Shown: positions 8,801-59,016, counted from the stretch's first letter. The stretch: DNA of 64,000 nucleotides from an uncultured Rhizobium sp. (GCA_964434225.1 CAYSUM010000002.1:40900-104899); one strand, 5' to 3'. Notes: generated by a model from the letters alone, not told the origin. A program made the numbers and translations.

Positions 8801-9298
8801 ATTGTTAAAACTACAGTCGAAGAATTTGTTGATCGCGATTTTGCCGTACAAATTAAGCTGGGAATTTCGCTGCTGATTCCAGAAGATTACATGCAAGATT
8901 TGAGCTTGCGCATGAGCTTCTACAAAAAAATCGCCAATATTAAAAATGATGAAGATGAAGAGAATTTAATTAACGAAATGAGTGATCGTTTTGGAAAAAT
9001 TCCGGCGGAAGTTTTAAATTTAATGGAAATCGCCAAGTTGAAATGGCTGTGCAAGAAAGTTGGTGTCGAAAAATTGGAAGCTGCTTCTGAGGGAATTTTA
9101 ATCAGCTTCAAAGACAATAAATTCGCCAATCCCGATGCTTTATTAAAAATGATTTTTTCAAGCAAAAATCAAATCAAAATTCATCAAGGACAAAAGGCGC
9201 TTTTTGTTTGCGATGCAAAATCGCCAGAGAATAAAATTGCTTCAGCTTTAAAAGTGATTGATCAATTACAAAAGCTGCTTGGAAATTATCCAATTTAA
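5855..9298 (+). CDS. mfd: Transcription-repair coupling factor
   Basis: Superfamily-2 helicase motifs are present (GDVGFGKTEVA, VIVDEEQHFG, LTLSATPIPRT, QLRGRVGR), along with a CarD-like domain and a UvrB-homology N-terminus. I moved the start to the ATG at 5855 (MDYKVKL...) because the 26 upstream codons of the track ORF lie in the palindromic repeat. Confidence 0.95.
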   Translation: MDYKVKLKNIKESSILTKIPADAQIFLTAEIAKNFSDSDLVFIAQNDVEMELAQKQIQFFAPDFEIINFHAWDSLPYDRASPKQAILANRIKTLHRLITRKNGQKFFIIASINSVLQKTIAPSRIKDLGLYLQVGSKTSLTQIAEFLVAKGYERQACANNIGEFAVRGGIVDVVMQQAADLIGYRVDFFGDEVESIKVFDPITQITQENVKSLEILPASEVLMSKKTVENFRQKYRAAFGAAIDDQLYAAISEMRSYSGMENWLPFFYEEELVSFFDYLQNPTIFFNEKIFQQAQHREELVNEYYQARVAERKIKDSIIYNPIEPDLLYFSAENFRKNLEKNLTIQFNQFDSNEKNQRVLDLEIKPVPDFALAGKTNQQDPLNLVKEFTADKKFVIACLSESFKERIGKILPDYNLKCPIIVLPLHFGFYTSDMMMIGEQAIFGEKIVRKKTSKAASQRLIEEGLSIASGELVVHRDHGIGKFDNIHTIAAGGIKTDMIKILYGGNDTLFVPVDDINLITRYGADNPLIQLDRLGVAAWKNRKEKVRKRIKVAAEELLKIAAARHLKKAPIFVPDQHFYDEFKTRFGFVETEDQMRAIEEVEEDLAKGSPMDRLICGDVGFGKTEVALRAAASVAGSNQRTQVAVVAPTTLLVRQHFKNFSKRFEGTNIKVAQLSRLVNLSDSKKVREELESGQVQIVIGTHALLQKTIKFKNLGLVIVDEEQHFGVAQKERLKELRHEVHVLTLSATPIPRTLQMSLTGVKDLSLISTPPLDRLAVRNFVMPYDSVIVREAVMREHNRGGRVFFVVPRITDITEMEPRLKILLPELKITHAHGQMTPSQLDKIMNDFVDGKIDMLLSTTIVESGIDISDANTMIIYKSEMFGLSQLYQLRGRVGRGKVRAYCYFMLDNRKKVSDESRKKLEVMQNLDSLGVGFTVATHDMDIRGSGNLLGDEQSGHINETGVELYQQMLLETIEELKNQKNIVKTTVEEFVDRDFAVQIKLGISLLIPEDYMQDLSLRMSFYKKIANIKNDEDEENLINEMSDRFGKIPAEVLNLMEIAKLKWLCKKVGVEKLEAASEGILISFKDNKFANPDALLKMIFSSKNQIKIHQGQKALFVCDAKSPENKIASALKVIDQLQKLLGNYPI

Positions 9299-11431: not shown

Positions 11432-12364
11432 TTATGAAATGCCGCAAGATGCTGATTTTACAAGATATTCAACGATTTCTTCAAAAGAAATTCCTACATG
11501 TTTAGCAATTTTTGGAACTAACGAAGTTGGCGTAAATCCAGGATGAGTATTCACTTCCAGCAAATAGAATTTATTATCGCCGCCATCTTTATTATTTAAA
11601 ATAAAGTCAACGCGACTTACTCCCGAACATCCTACGGCCTTATGACTTTTTTCTGCTAAATCCAAAATCTCAGCATATTTTTCAGCACTGATTTCTGCTG
11701 GCATAATGTAGTCGGTCATTCCCGCGGTATATTTACATTCGTAATCGTAAAATAATTTTTTCGGTCGAACTTCAATTGCGCCCAAAGCTTTATTATCCAT
11801 CACCGCCACTTGAATTTCCTGACCCGCCAGATATTTTTCTAAAATAATTTCATCGCCATATTTCCATTCATATTTTGAAATATCGAATTGAGCATTAGGT
11901 AAAACAACTTCGACACCAACCGACGACCCTTCGTTGATTGGCTTGATTACAAAAGGTTTTCCGATGTTAAAAAGTTTTTCTTTATTTTTTTCGTCTTCGC
12001 CTTTTTTCAAAATTTCATAGCGCGGAGAGTGTATGCCTAAAGTTTCGCAAATTTTACGAGTCAAAATTTTATCCATACAAATCGCTGAAGCGGTGATTTT
12101 GCTGTGAGTGTAAGGAATATTTAAAATGTCGAGAAAGCCCTGAATTCGACCATCTTCGCCATATTGTCCATGAAGAGCATTAAAAATTACGTCTGGTTTT
12201 ACTTCCTGAATTTGCTGAAAAATTTCACGAGTTAAATCAATTTTTGTTGCTTTATATCCAAGGTTAAGAAGTGCTTGGTATGCGGCTTCGCCCGATCTTA
12301 AAGAAACTTCACGTTCCGAATTCCAGCCACCCATTAATACCGCAACGTGTAAATTTTTTGTCAT
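11432..12364 (-). CDS. ddl: D-alanine--D-alanine ligase
   Basis: ATP-grasp enzyme with VAVLMGGWNSEREVSLRSG, ALHGQYGEDG and LLEVNTHPG motifs. I trimmed the start to the ATG at 12364 (MTKNLHV...); the longer track ORF would overlap the upstream gene. Confidence 0.93.
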   Translation of the reverse strand: MTKNLHVAVLMGGWNSEREVSLRSGEAAYQALLNLGYKATKIDLTREIFQQIQEVKPDVIFNALHGQYGEDGRIQGFLDILNIPYTHSKITASAICMDKILTRKICETLGIHSPRYEILKKGEDEKNKEKLFNIGKPFVIKPINEGSSVGVEVVLPNAQFDISKYEWKYGDEIILEKYLAGQEIQVAVMDNKALGAIEVRPKKLFYDYECKYTAGMTDYIMPAEISAEKYAEILDLAEKSHKAVGCSGVSRVDFILNNKDGGDNKFYLLEVNTHPGFTPTSLVPKIAKHVGISFEEIVEYLVKSASCGIS

Positions 12365-17832: not shown

Positions 17833-18159
17833 ATGAACAAAAAATTCTTGCAGTCAGTTGCTGCTGGTATTGCTACCCTAAGCCTTGTTGCTTCTTGCTC
17901 ACACTTGGGTCTTAAAAAAGAATCTAACACTTGTGGCGCTAAAAATGGTTGTGCGGCCGCTACTAAAAAAGACGAAGCTCACAAATGTTCTTCAAAAAAC
18001 AAAGAAGCTCACAAATGTGCAGCTGTAAAAAAAGAAGAAGCTAAAGAAGTTAAAAAAGCAGAAACTACTAAAAAAGGTCACAAAAAACACAAAAAAGCTG
18101 AAGTTGTAAAAGCTGATGCCGCTAAAACTGAAGCTAAAACTGAAGAAAAGAAAAACTAA
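17833..18159 (+). CDS. Secreted lipoprotein with Cys motifs and a Lys-rich tail; candidate MNIO RiPP precursor (bufferin/HvfA-like)
   Basis: Signal peptide and lipobox LVAS|C22 come first. These are followed by CGAKNGC and two EAHKC(S/A)(S/A) motifs, then a K/E/A-rich tail. The gene lies 10 nt upstream of the DUF692 gene. Confidence 0.6.
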   Translation: MNKKFLQSVAAGIATLSLVASCSHLGLKKESNTCGAKNGCAAATKKDEAHKCSSKNKEAHKCAAVKKEEAKEVKKAETTKKGHKKHKKAEVVKADAAKTEAKTEEKKN

Positions 18160-18168
18160 TTTTTAGTT

Positions 18169-19038
18169 ATGAGTTTTAGAAAAGTTCCGACTCCAGCAAA
18201 TTTAGTTGGGGTCGGGCTTCGATCCCCTCACATCTCCTACATCCTTACAAATCCCAAAAAAATTTCACAAAAAATCGGTTGGTTTGAAGTTCACAGCGAA
18301 AACTATTATGCCGATCAAAGCACGCTACAAAAGGATTTACTTACTATTCGCAAAAATTTCCCTATCAGCTTACATTCGGTTGGAAACTCTCTTGGATCAG
18401 CGCAAAAGCTTGATCTAATACACTTAAAGAAATTAAAAAATCTGGTTGAAAAAGTTGAACCATTTTTAATTTCAGATCATATTTCTTGGGGCAGAATTGA
18501 CGGCAATCACTTAAACGATTTATTGCCTCTACCCTACACCAAAGGCACTTTAAAGGCTATCTCTCGCAATATTTTGCAAATGCAAGATTTTTTAAAACGC
18601 GAAATTTTAGTCGAAAATCCTTCCGCTTATTTAGCCTTTAAAAATCAAGAAATGGACGAAGCAGAATTTATTAATGCTCTGACAAAAGAAACCGGCTGCG
18701 GATTATTACTTGACGTAAATAACATTTTTGTAAGCTCGCAAAACTGCTCCCAATTTGATCCGGTGAGCTATCTAAAAAAATTAAATAAAAAAATTGTCAA
18801 AGAAATTCATTTAGCCGGACATTCGAAATCGCAAATTTTTGACGGCAAAAATCATCAAGAAATTTTGATCGATACTCACAATAATTTAGTGTGCGACGAA
18901 GTCTGGGAAATCTACAAATTAGCCATTAAACGCTTTGGACCAGTTCCATCTTTAATTGAGTGGGATCAAGATTTTCCTGAATTTAATGTACTTTTGGATG
19001 AAGCAAAAAAAGCGCGGGAGATTTTAAAAAATGACTAA
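18169..19038 (+). CDS. DUF692 family multinuclear non-heme iron oxidase (MNIO; MbnB/BufB/HvfB-like)
   Basis: 289 aa with family hallmarks GVGLRSPH, WFEVHSENY, SLHSVGNSLGS, ISDHISWG, LLPLPYT, LVENPSAY, GLLLDVNNIFV, HLAGH, IDTH and SLIEWD. Confidence 0.9.
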   Translation: MSFRKVPTPANLVGVGLRSPHISYILTNPKKISQKIGWFEVHSENYYADQSTLQKDLLTIRKNFPISLHSVGNSLGSAQKLDLIHLKKLKNLVEKVEPFLISDHISWGRIDGNHLNDLLPLPYTKGTLKAISRNILQMQDFLKREILVENPSAYLAFKNQEMDEAEFINALTKETGCGLLLDVNNIFVSSQNCSQFDPVSYLKKLNKKIVKEIHLAGHSKSQIFDGKNHQEILIDTHNNLVCDEVWEIYKLAIKRFGPVPSLIEWDQDFPEFNVLLDEAKKAREILKND

Positions 19039-19762
19039 TTTAGCGAAACTTCAACAAGATTTTGCCAAACATATTTATCAAAAATCTGACAAAAAAATCT
19101 TAAGCGAAATAATTTATTCCAACATTGAGGCTCTAGAGCGCTTAAATATTTACCGCAATAATATTTTGGGAAATTTTGAATCAATTTTATCTTCAACTTT
19201 TATTGTAACTAAAAAAATTTTAGGTGAAAAAGAATTTGATAGGTTAACGCAAAAATTCTGTCAAAAATTTCCTTCAAAAAGTGGCGACCTAAATGAATTT
19301 GGCACCGAATTTCCGCAATTTATAAAATCTTACGAGCCCAAATATTTAAAGGATTTGGCGCAGCTAGAACTTTTTTATCATCAATCTTATTTTGCCCCAA
19401 GGCCTCAAAACAAATTCGATCTAAATAAATTTAAAAAAATCAAAGCTGAAAATTTTTCTAAAATTACTTTTACTCTAAATCCGTCTTGCATTTTACTTAC
19501 TTCAAAATTTGCAATTTTTACGATTTGGAAAAAAGAAAAGAAAATTAAAAATTTCGCCAAGCCAGAATTTGCAGCAATTCACAGCAGTAAAATTTTATTG
19601 TTAAATGCTGAAGAATTTTTGTTTTTATCGCTAATTTTACAAAAAAAACCGCTTTATAAAATCTACGAATCACTTTGCAAAAAAAGTAAAAAAGAAATCG
19701 ATATTGGCGCTTTAATTAATCGTTTTATTGCCGACGAAACAATCATAAAATTTTCTTTATGA
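19031..19762 (+). CDS. DUF2063 family protein (MNIO partner, BufC/HvfC-like)
   Basis: The N-terminal LQQDFAKHIY...ERLNIYRNNILGNFESIL..FP..KKILGEKEFDRL region is typical of DUF2063. It overlaps the DUF692 gene by 8 nt. Confidence 0.8.
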   Translation: MTNLAKLQQDFAKHIYQKSDKKILSEIIYSNIEALERLNIYRNNILGNFESILSSTFIVTKKILGEKEFDRLTQKFCQKFPSKSGDLNEFGTEFPQFIKSYEPKYLKDLAQLELFYHQSYFAPRPQNKFDLNKFKKIKAENFSKITFTLNPSCILLTSKFAIFTIWKKEKKIKNFAKPEFAAIHSSKILLLNAEEFLFLSLILQKKPLYKIYESLCKKSKKEIDIGALINRFIADETIIKFSL

Positions 19763-23523: not shown

Positions 23524-24588
23524 GTGTCTAAAAAACATACTGTAGCACTAGATTGTATGGGGGGAGATAGAGCTCCCCACTCGGTCATTGATGGAGCTCA
23601 AATTATTGCCAAGGCAAATTCGGAAATCCACTTTTTGCTTTTTGGCGACTCCACGAAAATCACTCCCATTCTAGAGCACTGCCCCGATCTTAAAGCTAGA
23701 CACACTTTAATTCACACCGAAGAATTTATTTCATCTGATGAAAAGCCTTCAACTGCTTTACGCAAAGGCACAAAATCAAGTATGCGTTTGGCAATTAATG
23801 CTGTAAAAGATGGCGAAGCTGATATTGCAGTTTCAGCTGGCAATACTGGTGCTTTAATGGCAATTTCTAAAATTGTTTTGCGCACCCTGCCTTCGATCGA
23901 TCGTCCCGCAATTGTTACTGCAATTCCCAACCAAAAAAAAACCGCTACTGTTTTATTGGATATGGGAGCCAATGTTGAATGTGGCCCCGATGTACTTTTC
24001 CAATTTGCCGTTATGGGTCACGCTTTTGCGCGAGTTGTTTTAAAAGTTGAAGAACCGACTATCGGAATTTTAAATGTTGGATCCGAAGATTTAAAAGGTT
24101 CGGATTCTGTAAAAAATGCCGCAATTTTACTAAAAGATAGCGATCTTAAAAATTCTTTTTACGGCTATGTTGAAGGCGACGATATTTTAAAAGGCACAGT
24201 TGATGTAGTTGTAACCGATGGCTTTACTGGCAATATCACTTTGAAAGCCATTGAGGGCACAGCAAAATTACTCTCTTCTTTAGTGAAAGAAGGTTTTAAA
24301 AGTTCTTTAATTTCAAAAATCGGCTATCTTCTTGCCGGAACCTCAATTCGTAACGCCACAAAAACCATGGATCCGCGCTTACATAACGGCGCAATGCTAG
24401 TTGGCTTGAATGGGGTTGTAGTAAAAAGCCACGGCGGAACTGATGCGCTAGGATTTTCCAACGCTATTCGCGTTGCCATCTCTCTAGTTGAAAATAAAAT
24501 TAACGAACGCATCACTGAAGAATTAAGAGCGTCATCAATAAATTCTAATAGTGACGCCGAAGAAAAACTCTCTAGCCATGGAAATTAA
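23524..24588 (+). CDS. plsX: Phosphate acyltransferase PlsX
   Basis: GTG start. ALDCMGGD, VSAGNTGA, LLDMGAN and TDGFTGN motifs are present, in the rpmF-plsX-fabH order. Confidence 0.95.
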   Translation: MSKKHTVALDCMGGDRAPHSVIDGAQIIAKANSEIHFLLFGDSTKITPILEHCPDLKARHTLIHTEEFISSDEKPSTALRKGTKSSMRLAINAVKDGEADIAVSAGNTGALMAISKIVLRTLPSIDRPAIVTAIPNQKKTATVLLDMGANVECGPDVLFQFAVMGHAFARVVLKVEEPTIGILNVGSEDLKGSDSVKNAAILLKDSDLKNSFYGYVEGDDILKGTVDVVVTDGFTGNITLKAIEGTAKLLSSLVKEGFKSSLISKIGYLLAGTSIRNATKTMDPRLHNGAMLVGLNGVVVKSHGGTDALGFSNAIRVAISLVENKINERITEELRASSINSNSDAEEKLSSHGN

Positions 24589-25540
24589 CAGCAAAATCAT
24601 TTCTACGGGTTCTTACCTGCCAGAAAAATTTCTCACTAATTTTGACTTGGAAAAAACCGTTGAAACTACTGATGCTTGGATTGTTGAACGTACAGGAATC
24701 AAGAAAAGACACATTGCTGCCGAAGGAGAATTAACTTCTGATATCGCTACTCAAGCCGCTTTAAGAGCAATCGCAAATTCTAATATTACAGCCGCAGAAA
24801 TCGACATGATTATCTTGGCAACCACAACTCCCGACCTGACATTTCCAGCAACCGCCACAACTGTTCAAGCCAAAATTGGTGCTAACGCTGCTTTCGCTTT
24901 CGACATTCAAGCTGTGTGCTGCGGTTTTGTTTACGCTCTGGCAACTGCCAATAATTTTATCAAATCTGGCCAAGTTAAAAATGCTTTGGTAATCGGCGCT
25001 GACACTTTATCTCGCATCGTCGATTGGACAGATCGCAACACTTGCGTACTTTTCGGCGATGGCGCCGGCGCAGTAATTTTACAAGCAAATAGCGAAAAAA
25101 ACTGCGGTATAATTTCGTCAAATTTATATTCTGACGGCTCGCTAAATAGTATTCTTAAAACCAGTGGCGGCACTGCTTCAACACAAAAATCTGGCTTTAT
25201 TGAAATGTCGGGAAAAGAAGTTTTTAAAAATGCGGTTGAGAAAATGTCAAAATCGGTTTTTGCCGCTCTCGCCGCCGCCAATCTAACTGTTGAAGATATT
25301 GATTTATTAGTTCCCCACCAAGCAAATGACAGAATTTTATGCGCAGTTGCCACTCGCCTTGGACTTCCCAAAGAAAAAGTGGTCGTTACAGTTCAAGATC
25401 ACGCCAACACTTCTGCCGCTTCAATTCCTCTTGCTCTTGATTTCGCCAATTCACAAGGTCGCATCAAAAAAGGTGACATTCTTGTTCTTGAAGCCCTAGG
25501 GGGCGGTTTGGCTTGGGGATCGATTGTTTTAAAGTGGTAA
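24578..25540 (+). CDS. fabH: 3-oxoacyl-ACP synthase III
   Basis: The start is set at MEINSKIISTGSYLP. Catalytic C (AVCCGF), H (VPHQAN) and N (HANTSAAS) contexts are present. It overlaps plsX by 11 nt. Confidence 0.95.
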   Translation: MEINSKIISTGSYLPEKFLTNFDLEKTVETTDAWIVERTGIKKRHIAAEGELTSDIATQAALRAIANSNITAAEIDMIILATTTPDLTFPATATTVQAKIGANAAFAFDIQAVCCGFVYALATANNFIKSGQVKNALVIGADTLSRIVDWTDRNTCVLFGDGAGAVILQANSEKNCGIISSNLYSDGSLNSILKTSGGTASTQKSGFIEMSGKEVFKNAVEKMSKSVFAALAAANLTVEDIDLLVPHQANDRILCAVATRLGLPKEKVVVTVQDHANTSAASIPLALDFANSQGRIKKGDILVLEALGGGLAWGSIVLKW

Positions 25541-25762
25541 TTTCAACCATGATTAACATCGGTACAAAGCCAGCAATTCGGCTTTTGTGACAATTACAGA
25601 AATATAAAAAATTGTCGAAAATGACCAAGCAAAAAAATCCCAAAATAAGACTAAAATTTTCCACAGCTTGAATTTTTACAACCGCTGCTAAAAATTTCCA
25701 ACAGATAGATCCACCTTTTTGCAGAGACACTCTGCAACCCTTCAAAGTTAATTTTATTAAAG

Positions 25763-27736
25763 ATGTTTTTAATACACAGAAGTAAGAAAGCTTTTTCTAT
25801 TATCGAGATCGCTATGGTGATTGTCATAATTGGCATTTTAATAGCTGGAATAGCTTCCCTAAATGGTTTTGTATCAAAATTTCGCATAACCACCGCCCAG
25901 TCTTTGACTCGCTCTTCTCCCATAAGCACCATCAGAGACAATTCTCTCTGGCTTGAAACTAGTATGGAAAACAGCTTTAATGATATTGAAAGCAAAGACC
26001 AATCTGCATTAACAAATTGGTATGAACAAAGAAATGCTGCTAATAAAATAGCCTTACAAGCTGTAAATGGCGGCCCAACTTACTCAAATAGTATCAACAA
26101 AATTCACGCCGTAAAATTCACTTCTTCGGGTGGTTATTTCACCTTTGATGCCAAATTTTTGAACAACACCGACTATACAATCACGATTCTTGAAAACAGG
26201 GAAAGCAATTCAAGTGACAACTATTTTTTAATTCATAATTCCATTTCAAGTCCAAGCGTCACAACTGCAAATCAAGATCTATTACTTGGTTACAATACTG
26301 ATGGCCAAATAATTCACAGCCAAGGCGGCATCAGTTCTTACAATTCCAACGTTAGCAACTACGGAAATTCTAGCGGCTTTCCAAAAATAATTACTTTTAC
26401 TCACAGCTCAACAAAAGGGAAAAAGATTTATATTAACGGAATGCTTGCTGCAAAAGACGAGGCCAATAAAAGCAACTTAACTGGCATCACAACTCTTGCG
26501 CTTGGCAAAGGATATACTGGTCAAATTGGCGAAGTTATAATTTTTACCAGAGCCATTGAAGCATCTGAAATTAGTGCAATTGAAGATTATCTTGCCCAAA
26601 AATGGTATATAAAAATCGATCGCAATACATCCGACTGCACAACTGGAGTTGCAACCACTTCTGGATGTGATACTTCTTCTGGCGGCAGTGGTGGCGGTGG
26701 CTCAGTGACTTGTCCCGTTTTAGTCACTGGCGTAACTAGCACAACTCCGGTAAATAGCGGCGCAGGATCTTTAAATTGCGACGCCACAAACTTTGATGGT
26801 GGCACAATTTCTTATGATTGTTCGGGAGGCGTATTGACGCCAGCATCTAGTTGCCAATGCGCTGTCGGATACATCCTCTCTGGTAGTACTTGCGTCTTGA
26901 AACCTACTTGTTCTGGTGGAACTGAAACAACAATAGGCGGCGAAAAAATCCATAAATTTACTTCTTCTGGAACCCTCACTTGCACTAACGCAATTACTGG
27001 AGCAAAAGTTCTTGTTGTTGGTGGCGGTGGCGGTGGCGGTTGGAGGGGCGCTGGTGGTGGAGCTGGTGGCTATGTTTACAACTCAGCTTTAGATTTAGCT
27101 TCTGGATCATACACAATAGATGTTGGCGCTGGTGGCGCTGGTGCAATTGGCTCTACTAATCAGCCTACCGCTCAAGGATCTGACGGTCAAGGATCATCGA
27201 TAAAATTGGGTGCAACGTCAATCATTACCACAGTTGGTGGTGGTGGTGGTGGAGCTGGTAGCGCCGGAACTGATGCTCTTGCTAGTGGTCGTAATGGTGG
27301 TTCTGGCGGCGGTGGAAGTTATTGGGGAGATTATAGAGCTGCTGGCGCTGGAACTTCGGGACAAGGTTTTGCTGGTGGTGGCGGTAGTACAAGTACACCA
27401 TGTTCTGGCGGTGGTGGTGGAGCAAGTTCTGCCGGATCTGTTGGTTCCACCGTTGGTGGTAACGGAGGCGCAGGAGCATCTAATTCAATTAGCGGTATCA
27501 CTCCTACGCCTTATTATGCTGGAGGCGGTGGTGGCGGATGCCATACTTCTACTGGCGGACTTGGCGGAAGCGGCATTGGCGGTAATGGCGGTTCTAGAAA
27601 TGCGCCATCAGATATACCCGCGACTGCTGCTGTGGCAAATACTGGATCTGGTGGCGGAGGCGGTAATAGCGGTAACTACGGTGGTAGTCAAAACGGCACC
27701 GCAGGTAGCGATGGTATTATCATCATACGCTATTAG
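25763..27736 (+). CDS. Prepilin-leader protein fused to a LamG-like domain, a Cys-rich linker and a C-terminal glycine-rich domain
   Basis: The N-terminus is MFLIHRSKKA|FSIIEIAMVIVIIGILIAGIA, an N-methylation-type motif with Glu5. The GQIGEVIIFTRAIEASEISAIEDYLAQKWYI ending is typical of LamG_3-type jelly rolls. There are 8 Cys in residues ~305-395. After this, KVLVVGGGGGGGWRGAGGGAGGY...NTGSGGGGG...GSDGIIIIRY* resembles 'glycine-rich domain' proteins as I recall them. Confidence 0.75.
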   Translation: MFLIHRSKKAFSIIEIAMVIVIIGILIAGIASLNGFVSKFRITTAQSLTRSSPISTIRDNSLWLETSMENSFNDIESKDQSALTNWYEQRNAANKIALQAVNGGPTYSNSINKIHAVKFTSSGGYFTFDAKFLNNTDYTITILENRESNSSDNYFLIHNSISSPSVTTANQDLLLGYNTDGQIIHSQGGISSYNSNVSNYGNSSGFPKIITFTHSSTKGKKIYINGMLAAKDEANKSNLTGITTLALGKGYTGQIGEVIIFTRAIEASEISAIEDYLAQKWYIKIDRNTSDCTTGVATTSGCDTSSGGSGGGGSVTCPVLVTGVTSTTPVNSGAGSLNCDATNFDGGTISYDCSGGVLTPASSCQCAVGYILSGSTCVLKPTCSGGTETTIGGEKIHKFTSSGTLTCTNAITGAKVLVVGGGGGGGWRGAGGGAGGYVYNSALDLASGSYTIDVGAGGAGAIGSTNQPTAQGSDGQGSSIKLGATSIITTVGGGGGGAGSAGTDALASGRNGGSGGGGSYWGDYRAAGAGTSGQGFAGGGGSTSTPCSGGGGGASSAGSVGSTVGGNGGAGASNSISGITPTPYYAGGGGGGCHTSTGGLGGSGIGGNGGSRNAPSDIPATAAVANTGSGGGGGNSGNYGGSQNGTAGSDGIIIIRY

Positions 27737-27867
27737 AGAATTAATCGTAACTTCGCAGATCACCATTTTGATAAAATTGTGGCGTTGGCGAAGGAGCTTT
27801 GTTCAAAGAAAAAAGCGTCAAAACAAAGCAGCCAAGAAATTGAATTATGGACTTAGTTGATGCGTTA

Positions 27868-28341
27868 CTAAAAAAAGCGGCGGTGATTATTGTGACAGAT
27901 CGCAACAGCTAAAGCATCAGCTTCGTCTTCACTTTGAAAACCCGCTTTTGGCAATAAAATTTTTATCATCATTTGTACTTGTTGTTTTTCTGCGCGCCCT
28001 ACTCCGACAATGGTTTTCTTTACTGCTGTCGCTGAATATTCTGACACTTTTAATCCGCATAACCCCAAACTTAGAATCAACGCACCTCTTGCGTGACCAA
28101 GTTTTAACGACGATGTAGGATTGGTATTTATAAAAGTTTCCTCAATTGCTGCCTCGTCGGGCTGATGAATTTGAATAAATTCGGTAAGAGATTTATGAAA
28201 GATCTGCAGGCGCTCCGACAAAGGCTCTGAAGGCTTGGTGTGGATTGTGGTGGAAGCAATAAAATGGAGGGAATTATTTTTAACCTCAATAATTCCAAGA
28301 CCAGTTTTGGTAAGCCCCGGATCAACTCCAAGAATTTTCAT
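27868..28341 (-). CDS. ruvC: Crossover junction endodeoxyribonuclease RuvC
   Basis: MKILGVDPGLTKTG, IEETF and EDEADALAVAICH catalytic-acid contexts are present. Confidence 0.93.
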   Translation of the reverse strand: MKILGVDPGLTKTGLGIIEVKNNSLHFIASTTIHTKPSEPLSERLQIFHKSLTEFIQIHQPDEAAIEETFINTNPTSSLKLGHARGALILSLGLCGLKVSEYSATAVKKTIVGVGRAEKQQVQMMIKILLPKAGFQSEDEADALAVAICHNNHRRFF

Positions 28342-30510
28342 CTAGGAATAAAATTTCTGATTTTTTTCGACCATTTCGATCAATAGTTTGCTCACAGCAA
28401 AACGCGAACCATGCTTGCCGTTAAGTTCACGCAATTGATCGACAACTTTTTGTAAACCGTAAGAATCGGCGCAACGCAATATTCCGCCACGAAAAGCTGG
28501 AAATCCAGCGCCCATAATCATTGCCATATCAAGATAGCTGGCGTTTTTAACAACACCTTCTTCCAAACATTTGGCGGCTTCGTTGATCATCATTAAAACG
28601 CAACGATCCACAATTTCAGCATCGGTTAGATTAACGCGCGAAATCGATTTAGCTTTTCTTAATTTATGCAGAATTTCGACAACTTTTGGATTTACTTGCG
28701 CGTGAGATTTCTCTTTTGAACTGTGCAAATAAAAGCCTTGGCCAACTTTTTTGCCGAGCAATTCTTTATGATTTTCATAAAGCTCATCCAAAATATCAGC
28801 AACTCGCATCCTTTCGCCGAAAGCTTCGTGCAGCGAATGCGCAACCTTGACACCAACGTCAATCCCAACCACATCCGCCAAAACAAAAGGACCCATTGGC
28901 ATTCCAAAAGTTTCAATCAAATGATCGATGCGCTGAATCTCTGCGCCCTCTTGAAGCAAATATGCGGCTTCGTTCATGTAAGGTAATAAAATTCTATTCA
29001 CCAAAAATCCGGCGGAATCTTTTACGACGATTGGAGTTTTACCGAGTTTTTTTGAAAGCTTGACGATCGTGCCAATAGTTTCGTCAGAAGTTTTTTCACC
29101 GCGAATAACTTCCACCAAAGGCATACGATTTACCGGATTAAAGAAATGCATTCCAGCAAAACGCTCAGGATTTTGTAGGGATTTTGCCATTTCAGAAATT
29201 GACAAAGATGATGTGTTTGAGGCAATTACGACGTCTTTTCCAACTTTAGTTTCAGCTTCGGCGAGAATTTTTTTCTTCACTGCCATATTTTCAACAACCG
29301 CTTCAATTACAAAATCAGCAGCGTCAAAACCAGCGTAATCAAGACCAGAGGAAATTTTATCAATCTTCGACGCAGCTTGAGCTTCAGTATATTTTTTGAT
29401 TTGTTTAAGCTGTTTATAAATTTTGATAACCTGATTGTAACCAAGAGCTATGGCATTTTGCGCAATATCTTTAACACGAATATTGATGTCGTAATTGCTG
29501 AAAAGCCAAGCAATTCCGCCGCCCATCACGCCAGCGCCAATTAATGCGGCATTTTTAATTTCTTTAACTTTGATGTCACTTTCAACTCCCGAATCTTTTT
29601 TTAAAGCTTCTGAGGTAAAGAAAATTTCGATCAGATTTTTTGAAACTTCGCCAACAGCTAATTCGCAAAAAGCCTCGAGTTCAATTTTTAAACCGCACTC
29701 TTCTTTTTGAGATCCGTAAGTTCTTCTGATAACTTCCAAAGCATAAAATGGTGCCAGATATTGGCCTTTGGTTTTTTCGAATAAATCTTTTTTAGCCAAA
29801 TAGAAAACAAAAATTTTCCCCAGCAAAAAATTTTCAAAAATACGACGTTTTTTGGCAGCTTTGTAACGCAGTGCTAAAAATTTATTTTTTTCACCTTCTT
29901 GTAAAATTTCTGTAATAAATTCGCTTAACTTTTCTTCTAAAAATTCTTCGCGAACGATTTGATCTAAAAGCCCAATTTGAAAGGCTTTTCTAACGTCAAT
30001 TGCTTTGCCAGAAAGAATAATTTTTAAACTTTGTTGCAGGCCAACTAATTTTGGTAAACGCTGCGTTCCGCCAAATCCAGGAATGATTCCCAAACTTACT
30101 TCTGGCAAACCTAAAACCGTTTTATGATTCACAACTCCAACACGATATTTGCAAGCCAATGCCAATTCCAAACCGCCGCCAAGACAAGCTCCGTCAATTA
30201 TGGCAATGGTTGGAATTTTTAATTTTGAAATTTTTGTTAAGATATTTTGACCGCGAGAAACTTTTTCTAAAGCATCTTCCGCGCTAGAAATCGCTTTGAT
30301 TTCATTGATGTCAGCACCAGCGATGAAAATGTCTTTTTTTTCAGAAGTGATCAACAAAACGCGAATTGCTTTATTGCCGTCAATTACATTAATTGCCTTC
30401 TCGAGCTCTTCTAATACTGGCGCTGAAAGCTTATTAACTTTTTCATTAGGCAAATTGAAAATCAAATTCGCGACGCCGTTTTTTTCAATTTCTAAAGAGA
30501 GTGCGTTCAT
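28342..30510 (-). CDS. fadB: Fatty-acid oxidation multifunctional protein (enoyl-CoA hydratase / 3-hydroxyacyl-CoA dehydrogenase, FadB/FadJ-like)
   Basis: 722 aa. The N-terminal half is a crotonase fold (FIAGADI, GGGLELALAC). The C-terminal half is a Rossmann HAD (IGAGVMGGGIA, HFFNPV). Confidence 0.9.
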   Translation of the reverse strand: MNALSLEIEKNGVANLIFNLPNEKVNKLSAPVLEELEKAINVIDGNKAIRVLLITSEKKDIFIAGADINEIKAISSAEDALEKVSRGQNILTKISKLKIPTIAIIDGACLGGGLELALACKYRVGVVNHKTVLGLPEVSLGIIPGFGGTQRLPKLVGLQQSLKIILSGKAIDVRKAFQIGLLDQIVREEFLEEKLSEFITEILQEGEKNKFLALRYKAAKKRRIFENFLLGKIFVFYLAKKDLFEKTKGQYLAPFYALEVIRRTYGSQKEECGLKIELEAFCELAVGEVSKNLIEIFFTSEALKKDSGVESDIKVKEIKNAALIGAGVMGGGIAWLFSNYDINIRVKDIAQNAIALGYNQVIKIYKQLKQIKKYTEAQAASKIDKISSGLDYAGFDAADFVIEAVVENMAVKKKILAEAETKVGKDVVIASNTSSLSISEMAKSLQNPERFAGMHFFNPVNRMPLVEVIRGEKTSDETIGTIVKLSKKLGKTPIVVKDSAGFLVNRILLPYMNEAAYLLQEGAEIQRIDHLIETFGMPMGPFVLADVVGIDVGVKVAHSLHEAFGERMRVADILDELYENHKELLGKKVGQGFYLHSSKEKSHAQVNPKVVEILHKLRKAKSISRVNLTDAEIVDRCVLMMINEAAKCLEEGVVKNASYLDMAMIMGAGFPAFRGGILRCADSYGLQKVVDQLRELNGKHGSRFAVSKLLIEMVEKNQKFYS

Positions 30511-31532: not shown

Positions 31533-32273
31533 TTAATTCATGAACATTCCGCCGTTAATATGCAGAGTGTGGCCCGTAATGTAAGAAGCATCTTCGCTTG
31601 CTAAGAAAGCAACTCCTTTTGCAATATCCGAAGAGTCGCCCATTTTTCCGGCTGGAATTTTTGTCAAAATCGCTTCTCTTTGTTGATCACTTAAAGAATC
31701 GGTCATTGGACTAGAAATAAATCCCGGAGCCACGCAGTTTAGAGTAATTCCACGAGTTGCAACTTCTTGCGCTAAAGATTTTGTCATGCCAATCATACCC
31801 GCTTTGGAAGCAACATAATTACATTGCCCTGGATTGCCAGTAACACCCACAACTGAAGCGATATTGATGATGCGACCATATTTTCTGCGCATCATTTTTT
31901 TAATCGCGTTACGATTTAAGATGAAAGTTGATTTCAAATTCACATCCAAAACTTGACTAAAATCTTCATCTTTCATGCGAAGCACCAGCCCGTCTTTAGT
32001 GATTCCAGCATTACAAACTAAAATATCGATTTGTCCGCCCGCAAGCTCTTCGGCCTTGTCGAATAAAGCTTCAACTTCCACGAAGTTTGATAAATTGCAG
32101 GTTAAATATTTTACATCGCCACCAATTTCAGCAGCTAATTCTTTAAGCTTATCTTCTTTTGTTGATGACAAAACTAATTTTGCACCTTGCGCCGCTAAAG
32201 CTTTAGAAATTGCGGCTCCAATGCCACCAGTTGCACCTGTTACCAACGCGTTTTTTCCTGTAAGTCTGAACAT
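31533..32273 (-). CDS. fabG: 3-oxoacyl-ACP reductase
   Basis: SDR with TGATGGIG, NAG and YVASKAG motifs; 246 aa. Confidence 0.93.
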   Translation of the reverse strand: MFRLTGKNALVTGATGGIGAAISKALAAQGAKLVLSSTKEDKLKELAAEIGGDVKYLTCNLSNFVEVEALFDKAEELAGGQIDILVCNAGITKDGLVLRMKDEDFSQVLDVNLKSTFILNRNAIKKMMRRKYGRIINIASVVGVTGNPGQCNYVASKAGMIGMTKSLAQEVATRGITLNCVAPGFISSPMTDSLSDQQREAILTKIPAGKMGDSSDIAKGVAFLASEDASYITGHTLHINGGMFMN

Positions 32274-50670: not shown

Positions 50671-53600
50671 TTAGCTAACCAAAGGTTTTAAACGATTTAA
50701 AGCTACAATAAAAACCGACAAATCAGGATTTGGCTGAGACTTTAATTCCAAAATGAAGTTGTCAAAACGCTCAACTAAAAATTCAGACTTTTTTACCCAA
50801 TTTGTCATTGATTCATTCTCGCAAAGAATTTTGTCTTTGCCGCTAGAATCAACGATGCTTTTAGCAATCTTCATCTGATAACTATAAAGATCTTCAAGGA
50901 TGGTTTTACTAGAAAGCTTCTGCCAGTGATTTTCATAATTGACGCTAGAAACTTTGCTACGCAACCATTTTAAAGAAAATCTATTGCCCACGGAAAAATA
51001 AACTTGGGCGATAACTTTCAGATCGAAATTTGAAGCTGCTGAGATTTCAGCAATATCAAAAACTGAAGCTAGCGGATCAAGTGAAGCGACCTTATTTGCC
51101 AATTTACGGTCAACTCCGTTCAAACAATATCTTTCAATTTTACGTTCGAAAGATTCGCGCGAAGCTTGAGCCAATACTTCCGATAAAAGAGAAGAAAGTT
51201 CGTTGGCGATTTTTCTGAAGCGAGTAATTACTGGAGAAATTGCCCCTTTTGATTGATTTCGCAACATCCACATCACCGATCTTTCCAACAACTTGCTTGA
51301 AGCCAAGAACATTTGCGATTGAATTTGTGGCGCAATTTTTCCATCAAGAGTTTCAATTTCTTCCCAGATTTCACGAAGTCTGAATGAATCGCAGGCAATG
51401 ACCAAACTTTTTACCACATCGGAAATCGCAAAACCACTATCTTGACAAAGTTGATTGACGAAAGTGATGCCAGCGCGATTAACCACAAAATTAGTAATTT
51501 GCGTCGCGATAATTTCATTGCGAAGTTGATGAGTTAAAATTTCTTCAGAGAATTTTTTCTGCAAAATTTTCGGGAAGTAAGAAACCAATTCATGTTCGAA
51601 ATATTTATCTTTAAGCAAATCTGAAGTCAGAAGCGCGTTATAAACATCCATTTTCGAGTAAGCCAACATCACGCAAAGCTCGGGGCGAGTCATGCCGATG
51701 CGGTCATTTTGTCTTTTATCGATTTCTTTTCTTGATGGCAAAAATTCAATTTTGCGATTGAGCAATCCTGATTTTTCCAAACGATCTAAAAATTGCGACT
51801 GATCACCAAGACTTGAGGCACCTTGTGAATAAGAAACCGAAATTGCTTGAGTTTGCAATCTGTTATCAGAAAGAACCAAGCGAGAAACTTCTTCCGTCAT
51901 ACTTTCCAAAACTTTATTTCTTTCTTCCAGAGTAATTTTTTTGCTACGCATTGCTTGAATCAAAGCGATTTTGATATTCACTTCATGATCTGAACAATCT
52001 ACGCCCGCAGAGTTATCCATGGCGTCGGTATTGATGCGACCGCCATTTAACGCATATTCGATACGACCTTTTTGAGTGAAACCAAGGTTTCCACCCTCAC
52101 CTACTACTTTGCATCGAAGCTCAGAACCATTGATACGCAAGGCATCGTTAGCGCGATCGCCAACATCTTGATTTGATTCATCGGCAGCTTTGACATAAGT
52201 TCCAATCCCGCCATTCCACAATAGATCGACTGGAGCTTTTAGAATTGCTTTAATCAATTCATTTGGCTCAAGCTCGTCTTCTTCGATGGCCAAGACCGCT
52301 TTAATTTCGGGAGAAATTACAATAGATTTGGCGCTTCTTTCAAAAATGGCACCACCTTTTGAAATCAAAGATTGATCATAATCCATCCAAGTTGAGCGTG
52401 GTAAATTGAACATACGAACACGTTCGACAAAAGATTTTGCCGCATCAGGATTTGGATCGAAGAAAATATGCATATGGTTGAAAGCGGCTACCATCTTGAT
52501 GTGTGGCGACAATAACATGCCGTTTCCAAATACATCGCCAGCTAAATCTCCAATACCAACACAAGTAAAATCTTGAGTTTGGGTATCGTGACCCATTTCC
52601 GCGAAATGTCTTTGAACCGAAATCCAAGCGCCTTTCGCGGTAATTCCCATTTTCTTGTGATCATATCCAACCGAACCGCCAGAAGCAAAGGCGTCACCTA
52701 GCCAAAAATTATATTCCGCAGAAATTCCATTGGCGATGTCGGAAAAAGTTGCCGTTCCCTTGTCAGCAGCAACCACCAAATAAGGATCTGGCGCATCATG
52801 CATCACTACATTTTGAGGATGATCTATTTTACCTTCAATGACGTTGTCGGTAATATCCAAAAGTCCTCGCAAGAAGGTTTGGTAAGAAGTAATGCCATCT
52901 TTCAAAACTTCGTCACGACTTAAACCAGCTGTTGGTTTTTTTACCACGAAACCGCCTTTTGAGCCGACGGGAACAATCACAGCATTTTTCGTCATTTGCG
53001 CTTTCATCAAACCAAGAACTTCGGTACGAAAATCTTCATGACGATCCGACCAGCGCAAACCGCCGCGCGCAACGCGTCCACCACGCAAATGAATTCCTTC
53101 CATTTTTGAAGAATAAACAAAAATTTCGGCGTAAGGAAGTGGCAACGGCAAATCTAAAACTTGCTGGCAATCGAATTTGAATGAAACGTAACCTTTAAAA
53201 CCACCTTCTTTTGAAACTTGATAATAGTTAGTTCTGAGAGTTGCTTTAATTACACTAAAGAATCTTTTAATCACCGCGTCATCAAGCAAGTCTTTGACCT
53301 GCCCTAAACTTTTGGCAATTTTTTCTGAAATGATTTCAATTTTTTTCTGCCTGTCAGAAAGACTAAGTTTGAAATTTGGATTAAATTTAACTTCAAAGAG
53401 CTCAATCAAAAGCTTGGTGATGTCTTTATATTTTACCAAAACATCGGCGATGTAGACTTGGCTGTATCTAAAGCCAGTTTGGTAAATATATTTTGTGTAA
53501 GCTCGCAGTAAATAAATTTGCTTCCAATCAAGATCCGCAACTACAACCAAGCGATTTAGCATACTAACATCGATTGCTTTATTCCAAATTAATAAAATAG

Positions 53601-56265: not shown

Positions 56266-57282
56266 CTATTGTTGACACGGATTAATCACCACATCCCACA
56301 CGCCATAAGCTCCACATCTTTTTGTCGGCTCGGCTGGACCAGAGGAATAACCCAGACTTGAACAAGTTGGAGAAGTTGCAACGGCAATTTGATTATACCA
56401 AGATAACGGCCAATTTATCGTACCGCCGTAAAGACTTTCAGTAGTAGCTAAACAAGGAATTACCGACAGAGCATTAAAATCTGCAACAAAACTATTTCTG
56501 CTTTTGTAGAAAACCACATCATCAAAAACATCACTATTTCCCGAAGAAGAATATAAGGTGTTGCTATAAGCGGTATCGTTGCTGGTGGAAGTTGGAGAAT
56601 TGCTTGCCTCTTCGGTATCAGTTGACAGAGCATTGCGCGAAGACGCGTCATTTCCATAAGCACCAGATTTATTTCCGCCAAAACTTATAATCGCAAAAAC
56701 TGCAGCAGTGTTATTATTAGCAGCATCAGTTCCAGAAACTGTGGTTAGTTGCACCGCCGAAGATCCAACTTTTTCATAAATTAAAATACTGGATGTTGAA
56801 GAAGTTCCAAAATCACCCGCTCCGCTGCTTGGAATTGCTCCAGCACTTGCCACGGTATAATTTTTATCAACAATATATTCAAACTTGCTGCCAAATCCAT
56901 CTTCCGCCATATCAAGAGGTAAGCCTAAAGTTTTGATTGGAATCATACCTCGCACTAAATTGCTTGAGCCGCTAGATTGCGAAACTCCCGAAGTACTAGC
57001 ACATAAAGAAGTGCTCGCCGCAGTGCCGTAAGTTGCACTTCCTGATTTAGTGTCAGTGATCGGCGCCGGACATGGTAATTTTTTATTGATAATCATGTAG
57101 TTACCTAAGGCTTTATAGATTTCAGCAATACGGTCCTTAGTAACTTTATTTTTAGAATTGTTTATGGAATTTACTGAAACTGACAGAGCTCCAGTTATAA
57201 GAATTGAAACGATAATGATGACAATAGAAAGCTCGATCAGACTAAAAGCTTGCTTGCGATTTTTTCTGCAAAAATTTTTCAA
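56266..57282 (-). CDS. Prepilin-type N-terminal cleavage/methylation domain protein, Ser/Thr-rich (orphan type IV pilin / pseudopilin-like)
   Basis: TTG start. MKNFCRKNRKQA|FSLIELSIVIIIVSILITGA is followed by ...KKLPCPA...IPIKTLGLP..DGFGSKFEYIV, a block common in pilin-like proteins. There are 2 Cys pairs near the C-terminus. Confidence 0.75.
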   Translation of the reverse strand: MKNFCRKNRKQAFSLIELSIVIIIVSILITGALSVSVNSINNSKNKVTKDRIAEIYKALGNYMIINKKLPCPAPITDTKSGSATYGTAASTSLCASTSGVSQSSGSSNLVRGMIPIKTLGLPLDMAEDGFGSKFEYIVDKNYTVASAGAIPSSGAGDFGTSSTSSILIYEKVGSSAVQLTTVSGTDAANNNTAAVFAIISFGGNKSGAYGNDASSRNALSTDTEEASNSPTSTSNDTAYSNTLYSSSGNSDVFDDVVFYKSRNSFVADFNALSVIPCLATTESLYGGTINWPLSWYNQIAVATSPTCSSLGYSSGPAEPTKRCGAYGVWDVVINPCQQ

Positions 57283-58080: not shown

Positions 58081-59016
58081 TTAAGAAATAAAAGCTTTCA
58101 AATCTTCTGAATTCTGAATCGATCTTGATTTGACGTTAGGGCAAGTTCTACCAACTAAGCCAGCCAAAACTTTTCCAGAACCAATTTCAATAATCTCTTC
58201 AACTCCTTGAGAAGCAAGAAATAACATTATTTCGCGCCATCTTACTGAGCCAGTAATTTGTTGCGCTAATAAATCACGAATTTGATTTGGATCGGTAACC
58301 AAATTCGCCGTAACGTTTGCTACCACTGGCACGATCGGTGATTGTACATCGGCTTTTGCCAAAGCAATTTTCATTTGATTTTGCGCTTCCAACATCAAAG
58401 TCGAATGGAAAGCGCCACTTACGGGAAGTGCAATGGCGCGTTTAGCACCTTTGGCTTTAGCAATTTCTAAAGCACGATCGATTGCAGATTTAGATCCTGA
58501 AATTACCACCTGCCCTACGGAATTATCGTTAGCAACTTGACATACTTGTCCTTGAGCCGCTTCGCGCGCGATCTCGTGCGCTACTTCAATTTCAACTCCC
58601 AAAATCGCTGCCATAGCGCCTTGAGTTTGCTCTCCACATTTCGCCATTTCGCGACCACGAACTTGCAAAAGTTTCGCGGTTTCTTCCAGTGAAATTGATT
58701 TTGCAGCACAGAGTGCGGAATATTCACCCAAAGAATGGCCAGCAACAAAAGAACAAAGATCAGTGATTTTTTTACCAAATTCTTTTTCTAAAACTTCGAT
58801 CAAAGCCACTGAAACCGCCATCAAAGCTGGCTGAGTATTTTCAGTTTTAGTAAGCTCTTCCGACGGACCTTCAAACATGATTTTGGAAAGATTGACTGAT
58901 AAAATATCGTCAACTTTTTTAAAAACTTCGCGTGCTGCCGAAAAATTTTCTGCAAGATCTTTTCCCATTCCAACCACTTGAGAACCTTGACCTGGAAAGA
59001 CTAAAGCTGTTTTCAT
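58081..59016 (-). CDS. fabD: Malonyl CoA-ACP transacylase
   Basis: FPGQGSQ, the GHSLGEYSAL active-site motif and a SGAFHS-type motif are present. Confidence 0.95.
   Translation of the reverse strand: MKTALVFPGQGSQVVGMGKDLAENFSAAREVFKKVDDILSVNLSKIMFEGPSEELTKTENTQPALMAVSVALIEVLEKEFGKKITDLCSFVAGHSLGEYSALCAAKSISLEETAKLLQVRGREMAKCGEQTQGAMAAILGVEIEVAHEIAREAAQGQVCQVANDNSVGQVVISGSKSAIDRALEIAKAKGAKRAIALPVSGAFHSTLMLEAQNQMKIALAKADVQSPIVPVVANVTANLVTDPNQIRDLLAQQITGSVRWREIMLFLASQGVEEIIEIGSGKVLAGLVGRTCPNVKSRSIQNSEDLKAFIS

Follow-up and report, generated by a model that had tools for sequence, protein, structure and literature searches.

A multi-copy family of prepilin-type proteins with a variable glycine-rich C-terminal domain: candidate filament-displayed adhesins of small freshwater relatives of Rickettsia

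In the type IVb thin pili of IncI plasmids, the PilV protein combines a constant N-terminal part with C-terminal segments that are swapped by a shufflon, which changes receptor specificity. The TIGR04294 (H-X9-DG) proteins of Planctomycetota and Verrucomicrobiota form a large paralogous family with prepilin leaders. Modular pilins are an established category, with PF13385 among their commonest passenger modules (Raynaud et al. 2021, PMC8179133). The lectin pilin PilC of Streptococcus sanguinis has been modelled at the pilus tip, and its pilin moiety is described as 'unusually short' (Shahin et al. 2023, PMC9934059); for PilB and PilC of this species, display at the tip and a role in adhesion have been demonstrated (PMC8179133, PMC9934059). 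In gp24 of the phage Pam3, conserved GGGGxGG stems within a lattice bear a hypervariable distal tip that is proposed to bind the host receptor (PMC9608196). Finally, type IV pili have been proposed as the means by which extracellular relatives of Rickettsia hold on to their hosts, without an adhesin being named (Schoen et al. 2022). Here, we describe a gene at positions 25763–27736 (+ strand) of a 64,000-nucleotide stretch of DNA, referred to below as the window, from an uncultured Rhizobium sp. (GCA_964434225.1, CAYSUM010000002.1:40900-104899). Its 657-amino-acid (aa) product consists of a prepilin-type helix, a LamG-like domain, a Cys-rich stalk and a glycine-rich domain of a type known from phages. 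With somewhat better than even confidence, we read it as a type IV pilin or pseudopilin of modular build whose variable tip would bind receptors, in other words as a filament-displayed adhesin.

The open reading frame (ORF) starts with ATG, and the coordinates given above include its stop codon. An identical product is encoded on the Logan contig L001, which stops 221 bp past the gene. More than 1500 database proteins match the sequence, and most of the best ones share the four-part architecture. The names that these homologues carry at source go no further than 'prepilin-type N-terminal cleavage/methylation domain-containing protein' and 'type II secretion system protein'. The preliminary description of the locus had proposed this ORF, a type IV pilin-class N-terminal helix with Glu5, a LamG-type region at residues ~60–290, a GGSGGGGS hinge and a glycine-rich stretch over the last ~250 aa. 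The ORF proved exact, and each of the other parts was recovered by the analyses reported below.

The protein begins with MFLIHRSKKA followed by FSIIEIAMVIVIIGILIAG, and has Phe at +1, Glu at +5 and Gly at +14, which is the pattern of a class III (prepilin-type) signal. The 10-residue leader (residues 1–10; 25763–25792, + strand) contains a Lys-Lys pair. From sequence reading and from matches to N_methyl (PF07963) and TIGR02532, the cut is predicted after Ala10, so the mature N-terminus would be FSIIEIAMVIVIIGILIAGIA. The match to TIGR02532 reaches 16.3 bits, exactly its cut-off, and a precomputed PF07963 match is present in several homologues. The following segment, FSIIE and the rest of the hydrophobic alpha-1 helix (residues 11–55; 25793–25927, + strand), is predicted to serve as the filament core and assembly interface. 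In the AlphaFold2 (AF2) model, a helix spans residues 13–50 with a predicted local distance difference test (pLDDT) score of 80–96. The IIGIL core is kept across the family, together with Phe+1, Glu+5 and Gly+14. By itself, the class III motif of the 657-aa protein is marginal, yet the family conserves it. A sequence search of the PDB matched the pilin helix alone, at E ~0.3.

Behind the helix lies a LamG/ConA-like beta-sandwich (residues 56–290; 25928–26632, + strand), which ends in GQIGEVIIFTRAIEASEISAIEDYLAQKWYI. When residues 40–300 were scanned alone, PF13385 (Laminin_G_3) scored 28.7 bits against a gathering score of 27.6; a Pfam scan of the whole 657-aa protein did not report it. Foldseek comparison of the whole AF2 model with the PDB returned ConA-like lectin domains (BoNT Hcn/NTNH and the lectin domain of trans-sialidase) at E 6e-7 to 1e-5, as well as a cyanopodophage tailspike. 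The residues that are invariant in the LamG part, namely G176, Y177, Y223, N225, G248, Y251, G253, G256, E257, Y276 and K280, could be structural. Helix and LamG domain also occur on their own, in ~290–295-aa proteins that end just past LamG. The two therefore make up a self-contained pilin-like unit, which in the longer proteins carries an added stalk and tip. Given this stand-alone form, the LamG domain may mainly be the pilin body; it is possibly also a lectin.

The stalk (residues 291–384; 26633–26914, + strand) consists of a first Cys pair, the hinge and small Cys-rich beta modules, which the AF2 model places at about residues 330–380. The GGSGGGGS hinge occupies residues 307–314 (nucleotides 26681–26704) and is the sole internal segment with pLDDT below 50. 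Where the preliminary description spoke of an 8-Cys module, we count 10 Cys in residues 292–407 (at 292, 302, 317, 339, 353, 364, 366, 377, 383 and 407), with 2 more in the glycine-rich domain. Across the family, the stalk varies in length from 101 to 552 aa, and the number of Cys is even in 96% of 99 members. This suggests an exported, oxidised protein and fits disulfide-bonded extracellular modules.

The last part of the protein (residues 385–657; 26915–27733, + strand) is predicted to combine a TNF-like beta-sandwich with a glycine-rich lattice and to serve as the variable receptor-binding tip. Gly_rich_2 (PF21722) covers residues 401–657 at E 1.9e-19, with 71 bits against a gathering score of 24.3 and an alignment to positions 2–225 of the 226 in the profile; Gly makes up 34.6% of the domain. 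The full AF2 model, based on a 50-sequence alignment, has a mean pLDDT of 90, and the C-terminal 273 residues modelled alone reach a pLDDT of 93 and a predicted template modelling score (pTM) of 0.92. In the model, strands are formed by residues 386–391, 394–399, 403–407, 411–419, 437–445, 448–453, 479–482, 485–489 and 652–656, and the remainder is neither alpha nor beta. The protein thus combines the N-terminal motif with the extra domains PF13385 and PF21722, in keeping with the definition of a modular pilin, which asks for an IPR012902-type motif at the N-terminus and one or more additional domains of no specific relation to type IV pilus biology (PMC8179133).

Structure comparison of the tip pointed to phages. 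Against the PDB, Foldseek matched the model to the tail tip of mycobacteriophage Bxb1 (E 1e-5) and the fibre gp24 of cyanophage Pam3 (6e-4), with template modelling (TM) scores of only 0.4–0.5. The TNF-like/glycine-rich domains of ALK and LTK were matched more weakly (E 5e-3 to 3e-2, TM ~0.28). Predicted viral structures in BFVD were much closer, at TM ~0.8, 35–43% identity and E values down to 4e-21; cyanophages, pelagiphages, a haloarchaeal virus and prasinoviruses encode them, under the name 'glycine-rich domain-containing protein'. Among the PHROGs, phrog_2295 was matched at 4e-44 and a tail-category family at 3e-8. A tblastn search of the tip domain against 50,697 phage records gave no match, and since the low-complexity filter of BLAST was on, this says little. 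In the literature we found nothing on PF21722, on Gly_rich_2 or on a pilin-borne glycine-rich domain. These results agree with the background given for such domains in the preliminary description: they are found in phage and giant-virus proteins and are related to polyglycine domains, here those of the polyglycine lattice type, which the tip resembles. The structure prediction that it proposed for the C-terminus yielded a confident model, and the region is conserved in the more than 1500 homologues, which speaks against a low-complexity artefact.

The family's distribution was examined by scanning one genome per species (185,579 species) with two motifs specific to the LamG part. The scan found 143 coding stretches, 80 of which were kept; these lie in about 21 Rickettsiales-like metagenome-assembled genomes (MAGs) with 1 to 12 or more family loci each. 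The MAGs come from lakes, groundwater and effluents, and bear the labels Rickettsiales, Alphaproteobacteria or, in evident error, Rhizobium or Rickettsia typhi. Among database proteins, the helix and LamG part used as a query matched 199 clusters (50% identity) at E <1e-30 and 1520 at E <1e-10. One contig (L027, 9980–18272) carries four consecutive prepilin-type genes, three of them full members of 740, 784 and 762 aa, and the fourth a convergent gene for a 295-aa protein with helix and LamG only.

Within the family, variation is concentrated in the tip. Column entropy is 1.4 bits in the helix and LamG parts and 1.8 in the stalk; in the tip, it is 1.0 at Gly positions and 2.26 at non-Gly positions. 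The non-Gly tip loops are the most variable part of the protein, and the pattern is the conserved stem and variable loop of phage fibres. Moreover, the identity of residues 1–290 says little about that of residues 385–657 (Spearman 0.15 over 1225 pairs). The histories of the N- and C-terminal parts are decoupled, and the C-terminal domain is exchanged like a cassette. Several pairs are 87–100% identical to about residue 380 and just 43–51% identical from there on; in P0002 and P0004, the N-terminal parts are 100% identical and the tips 45%. At the DNA level, contigs L078 and L002 (the latter that of P0004) share 99.2% identity over 11.27 kb, comprising upstream genes and the first ~1273 nucleotides of the gene, and then diverge at or near the first poly-Gly tract. 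L002 ends 93 bp past the gene, and its positions 11992–12046 are an exact 55-nucleotide copy of L078 9885–9939, upstream of the gene. This suggests either a tandem second copy with an identical 5′ part or an assembly join. The combination of a conserved N-terminal part and a divergent tip is general beyond this example: four paralogues in one MAG, all on long contigs, have N-terminal parts that are 78–85% identical and tips that are 46–53% identical. It may be added that several further contigs, such as L001, also end at or just past family genes.

We looked for signs of a switching mechanism in the window. No pair of inverted repeats was present in 25000–28500, where the only DNA repeats are runs of GGN codons. 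There is no recombinase gene beside the target gene, and the adjoining ruvC is a housekeeping gene. The lack of inverted repeats in this interval rules out a shufflon or invertible cassette.

Family members of the relatives occupy varied housekeeping sites: after mrdA, between ftsA and mfd, and between hisS and ccmC. The two closest relatives have a member between ftsA and mfd (L018, 10001–11236; L024, 10001–11089). In the window, these two genes overlap by 4 bp (9295–9298) and have no family member between them. Copies are therefore gained, lost or moved quickly.

If the protein is processed as a prepilin, a prepilin peptidase should exist in the same lineage. The closest relative that we found is the MAG CAYUHG (L026), which shares 70–94% amino-acid identity with the window over housekeeping proteins. 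It contains a 252-aa ORF (1311–2066, + strand) that matches A24_N_bact at E 4e-21, and another relative (L005) has a 285-aa ORF with both A24_N_bact and Peptidase_A24. In both relatives, this gene is within about 9 kb of a family member. The 252-aa form, which is present also in L081–L093, recurs with 66–97% identity in the 120 clusters listed out of 352 matches; in some sources, it goes under the name prepilin peptidase. Across 17 aligned sequences, the candidate catalytic residues Asp122 and Asp188 and four Cys are invariant, and the two Asp align with the catalytic motifs of the canonical enzyme. Its gene context, read from 13 contigs where they are long enough (3 for P0129 and 10/13 for P0124), is prs, cytochrome c, the pilD-like gene, ahcY, greA and two tandem prepilin-type genes of ~290–315 aa. 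The latter two possibly encode the major subunits. The P0124 and P0129 contigs come from other samples, and the window organism's own PilD was not found. The window itself showed no gene of the pilB, pilC, pilD or pilQ type by ORF reading, motif scans, tblastn with two PilD-like proteins and Pfam lists for parts of it, as the preliminary description had said of the vicinity of the gene. As to the prepilin peptidase on which its interpretation depended, the outcome is favourable in relatives, where such genes exist; none was found in the window.

Published data help to place the lineage. In four of four Gamibacteraceae genomes, PilB, PilC, PilD (1–2 copies) and an MshL/GspD-like secretin were recorded (Schoen et al. 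2022, Suppl. Data 4). The PilD-like protein of the Gamibacteraceae genome RIFCSPLOWO2_01_FULL_40_26 is 68% identical to that of L026, which means that the window lineage is probably Gamibacteraceae. This family in turn probably equals the GTDB family UBA1997, both being described as sister to the Deianiraea lineage; we found no paper that states the equivalence. Cells of UBA1997 were seen as epibionts on cryptophyte algae by CARD-FISH (bioRxiv 10.1101/2023.01.31.526412).

Taken together, these data are consistent with the following mechanism. The N-terminal hydrophobic helix would insert the prepilin into the inner membrane, where a lineage-specific PilD-type peptidase would cut the 10-residue leader after Ala(−1) and presumably methylate Phe1. 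A minimal type IV filament machine, made up of the PilB ATPase, the PilC platform and the secretin, would then raise the helix so that it becomes part of a filament. What follows the helix would end up on the outside of the cell, most probably at the tip of the filament, and would expose the LamG pilin body (possibly a lectin), the flexible hinge, the disulfide-stabilised stalk of variable length and the distal TNF-like/glycine-rich domain. In the latter, conserved glycine stems would support hypervariable loops, and these would attach to a receptor on the surface of a eukaryotic host. Genomes would keep several to a dozen or more paralogues that swap their C-terminal domain through recombination at or near the first poly-Gly-coding tract, and the set would act as a repertoire of attachment specificities.

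Several observations weigh against this reading. Motif scans of the window and of 93 loci, about 1.3 Mb in all, found no pilus assembly genes. The motifs covered the Walker A of secretion ATPases, PilT, GspF, secretin and PilD, and the negatives are weak, since an overly strict PilD expression passed over a genuine PilD-like ORF in L026. The evidence for PilD, PilB, PilC and the secretin comes from relatives of the window genome and from the literature, and the assignment of the window to Gamibacteraceae/UBA1997 is itself a probable one based on protein identities. The PilD-like protein of 252 aa has no match to the Pfam A24 catalytic model and carries FDYTKF in place of GxGDxKL. The N_methyl score of the 657-aa protein is 18.8 bits, under the gathering score of 21.2, and the residue at −1 is Ala, not the near-universal Gly of prepilins. 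A canonical pilin alpha-beta roll is missing: helix 13–50 leads directly into the LamG sandwich, and DSSP assigns no separate 4-stranded pilin sheet. A passenger of 65 kDa would have to traverse the secretin. The breakpoint between P0002 and P0004 could be partly an assembly join, since the contig L002 is co-assembled and has the 55-nucleotide end repeat. Finally, PilT, PilM and canonical PilQ were scored absent in Gamibacteraceae and PilN-like proteins were weak and patchy (Schoen et al. 2022, Suppl. Data 4), which makes a classical retractile pilus unlikely.

The unusual residue at −1 deserves a closer look. Over 65 family N-termini, it is Ala in 58, Gly in 6 and Ser in 1; this set was drawn with a regular expression that demanded Phe+1 and Glu+5. 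The unbiased family consensus (A1) reads AFSLIE. Ala(−1) is accepted by some PilD enzymes and is found in streptococcal ComGC. One may speculate that the Ala(−1) bias and the FDYTKF motif are linked, with a divergent peptidase paired to Ala(−1) substrates.

The main rival explanation we consider unlikely but well short of negligible. The protein might be a prepilin-like exoprotein that functions outside any filament, its class III signal being an export or processing tag or a membrane anchor. After cleavage by PilD, it would either stay tethered in the inner membrane, facing the periplasm, or be released through the secretin to the surface or the medium. Large paralogous families with prepilin leaders, of the TIGR04294 type, offer a parallel in Planctomycetota, Verrucomicrobiota and Lentisphaerota. 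The genomic layout speaks for such a role: the genes are scattered among housekeeping genes, were never seen beside pilus assembly genes in the contexts of the relatives, and reach 12 or more loci per genome. So do the lack of a canonical pilin head, the sub-threshold N_methyl score and the absence calls for PilT and PilM in Gamibacteraceae. However, the residues that the family conserves (Phe+1, Glu+5, Gly+14 and the IIGIL core) are of importance to the assembly of a filament, not to export. Furthermore, a disulfide-rich stalk of extracellular type and a tip like those with which phages bind receptors would be hard to explain in a periplasmic protein. Lastly, PilB, PilC and the secretin are retained in genomes reduced to 1.1–1.8 Mb (Schoen et al. 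2022, Suppl. Data 4).

It is less probable still that we are dealing with a structural component of a pseudopilus resembling that of type II secretion, be it part of a piston or a GspK/GspH-like cap, whose bulky domains would serve secretion or substrate loading and not host adhesion. 'Type II secretion system protein' is the source name of some homologues, the secretin family of Gamibacteraceae is annotated as mshL/gspD-like, and NCBIfam shows similarity to GspH and GspG. This similarity, though, is weak, far under the cut-offs and confined to the N-terminal helix. A secretion piston would have no need of 5–12 paralogues with hypervariable distal loops and swapped tips, and those relatives of the tip domain whose structures are solved bind receptors or ligands.

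Very improbable is a recently acquired phage or mobile-element gene, such as what is left of a prophage tail fibre, joined by accident to a signal anchor and inserted beside fabH: the tip resembles phage glycine-rich proteins (35–43% identity, with the phrog_2295 and tail-category PHROG matches), the local GC content peaks at 0.53 (27.0–27.5 kb) and the Logan contig ends 221 bp past the gene, but the GC content at third codon positions (GC3) is typical of the window, the peak is explained by the 34.6% of Gly codons, integrase, transposase and phage genes are not found nearby, inverted repeats are lacking, and the full architecture is that of a conserved, vertically spread lineage family. The GC3 of the gene is 0.305, compared with 0.325 ± 0.041 for the other 48 ORFs of the window. 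The comparison of codon usage and GC with the neighbours that the preliminary description proposed thus came out in favour of a resident gene: GC3 and the use of Gly codons match those of neighbouring genes. Recent horizontal acquisition is rejected on these grounds, the GC peak being compositional.

A filament-displayed adhesin is therefore the reading to which we return, and the protein is a good candidate for a host-attachment molecule in small freshwater relatives of Rickettsia, some of which are attached to algae. Current scenarios for how host association arose leave open the way in which the extracellular relatives of Rickettsia hold their hosts. The family provides concrete adhesin candidates: abundant, lineage-specific, of surface type, and uniting a pilin anchor with a receptor-binding fold from the phage world. 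Its tip variation is as expected of host-specificity determinants. More tentatively, and with clearly lower confidence than for the adhesin role as such, epibiotic Rickettsiales of the Gamibacteraceae/UBA1997 type might maintain a pilus-borne repertoire of 'tail-fibre tips', re-assorted in cells and populations through homologous recombination with crossover at poly-Gly tracts; its processing would fall to a non-canonical peptidase that has co-evolved with it and is adapted to Ala(−1). If true, this would be a host-range-determining system analogous to the swapping of phage tail fibres, in a bacterium near the transition from extracellular to intracellular life. For annotation, it is of note that a distinct family of four-module proteins is concealed under the label 'prepilin-type N-terminal cleavage/methylation domain-containing protein'.

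A second prepilin-type gene, overlooked in the preliminary description, is present in the window between infC and fabD (56266–57282, − strand). It was found by motif scan and encodes a Ser/Thr-rich protein of 338 aa with several Cys, in which RKQA is followed by FSLIELSIVIIIVSILITG; its N_methyl score of 25.9 bits is above the gathering score. The protein is only weakly similar to the ~290-aa pilin-like genes beside pilD in relatives and may be another subunit of the same filament system.

The target gene is separated by a 222-bp gap from the upstream fabH (24551–25540) and is followed by a convergent ruvC (27868–28341), in agreement with the preliminary description. The latter had also held that the gene interrupts the usual plsX-fabH-fabD-fabG order. 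This part is not supported, because fabD (58081–59016, − strand) and fabG (31533–32273, − strand) are found elsewhere in the window and the family's genes in relatives are spread over many housekeeping sites that have nothing in common. The idea of an insertion into a fab operon is likewise rejected, given the positions of fabD and fabG; in the closest relatives a copy sits at ftsA/mfd, where the window has none. Without the fab argument, the proposal of a pilus- or pseudopilus-presented adhesin with an unusual tip is still the best-supported one.

The search of 25400–28000 against Rfam gave no match, and a scan for promoters and terminators stayed at chance level. A 216-aa ORF at 27210–27860 (+ strand) overlaps the Gly-rich coding region in another frame. 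Its product is rich in Val, Leu and Ala, and it is most likely an artefact of the GGN-repeat coding, not to be annotated as a gene.

The remaining genes of the window are housekeeping genes, plus VirB10. A 108-aa ORF with a signal-like start and repeated Cys/His/Lys motifs, together with the MbnB/DUF692-family and HvfC_N-family genes that follow it, occupies 17833–19762 (+ strand). The group looks like an HvfA-B-C-type cluster for metal binding or peptide modification, and the trio is present also in L024. The 1614-aa gene at 50671–55515 (− strand), which adjoins infC, is unusually large for a reduced genome; from the translation, we read its product as a NAD-specific glutamate dehydrogenase of the large type. 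Genes for two ankyrin-repeat proteins (492 and 515 aa) lie ~6–9 kb beyond the start of the window (L075, 15881–19151), and VirB10/TrbI lies at the opposite end (62430–63782, − strand). Both are hallmarks of a host-associated lifestyle of the Rickettsiales type.

How does this family compare with known systems? Large prepilin-type expansions recur in environmental Rickettsiales, as seen from the copy numbers of the PilA/GspH/FimT-like family 0244Y: 57, 11, 6, 23 and 48 in Mitibacteraceae genomes, with 13 and 22 for Athabascaceae (Schoen et al. 2022, Suppl. Data 4). Like 0244Y and TIGR04294, the present family has undergone a lineage-specific expansion, carries a class III signal and is scattered over the genome; it differs from both in its passenger domains. 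With PilV it shares a constant N-terminal part and alternative C-terminal segments. Unlike in PilV, no sfx-type inverted repeats, invertible segments or Rci recombinase were found, and the variation would arise through paralogues and homologous exchange.

On the side of the tip, the predicted combination of a beta-sandwich with a polyglycine lattice recalls the TG domain of ALK and LTK (7nx1, 7nx4, 7lrz, 7lir), a monomeric ligand-binding module on a membrane-anchored protein. That domain, in contrast, is eukaryotic and binds cytokines; the similarity is weak, and we claim no evolutionary link. Phage proteins come closer. In the model, residues 385–657 have the fold seen in Pam3 gp24 (7ypx), the Bxb1 tail tip (9d93, chain Q) and the Pan3 tailspike (9vyh), with the same conserved GGGG(x)GG stems, variable distal loops and distal position on an elongated carrier. 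Here, however, the carrier is a pilin helix instead of a trimeric shaft, and a tail-fibre chaperone gene is not adjacent. The polyglycine adhesin gp38 of phage S16 is a more distant case.

The nearest counterparts of the protein as a whole are the modular pilins, S. sanguinis PilC in particular. Both have a class III signal with Glu5, and in both a ConA-like/LamG module is attached to a pilin part of very small size. Unlike PilC, the present protein belongs to an organism that is presumably diderm and not monoderm, has Ala at −1, and continues into an extra hinge, a Cys stalk and a TNF-like/glycine-rich tip. Its gene stands outside a pil locus and is part of a multi-copy family with exchangeable tips. 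What is new is thus the extension of the modular-pilin concept to a TNF-like/glycine-rich passenger, which adds a stalk and a phage-type receptor-binding tip, together with the multi-copy, tip-exchanging organisation and the setting in what are probably epibiotic Rickettsiales with a minimal filament machine.

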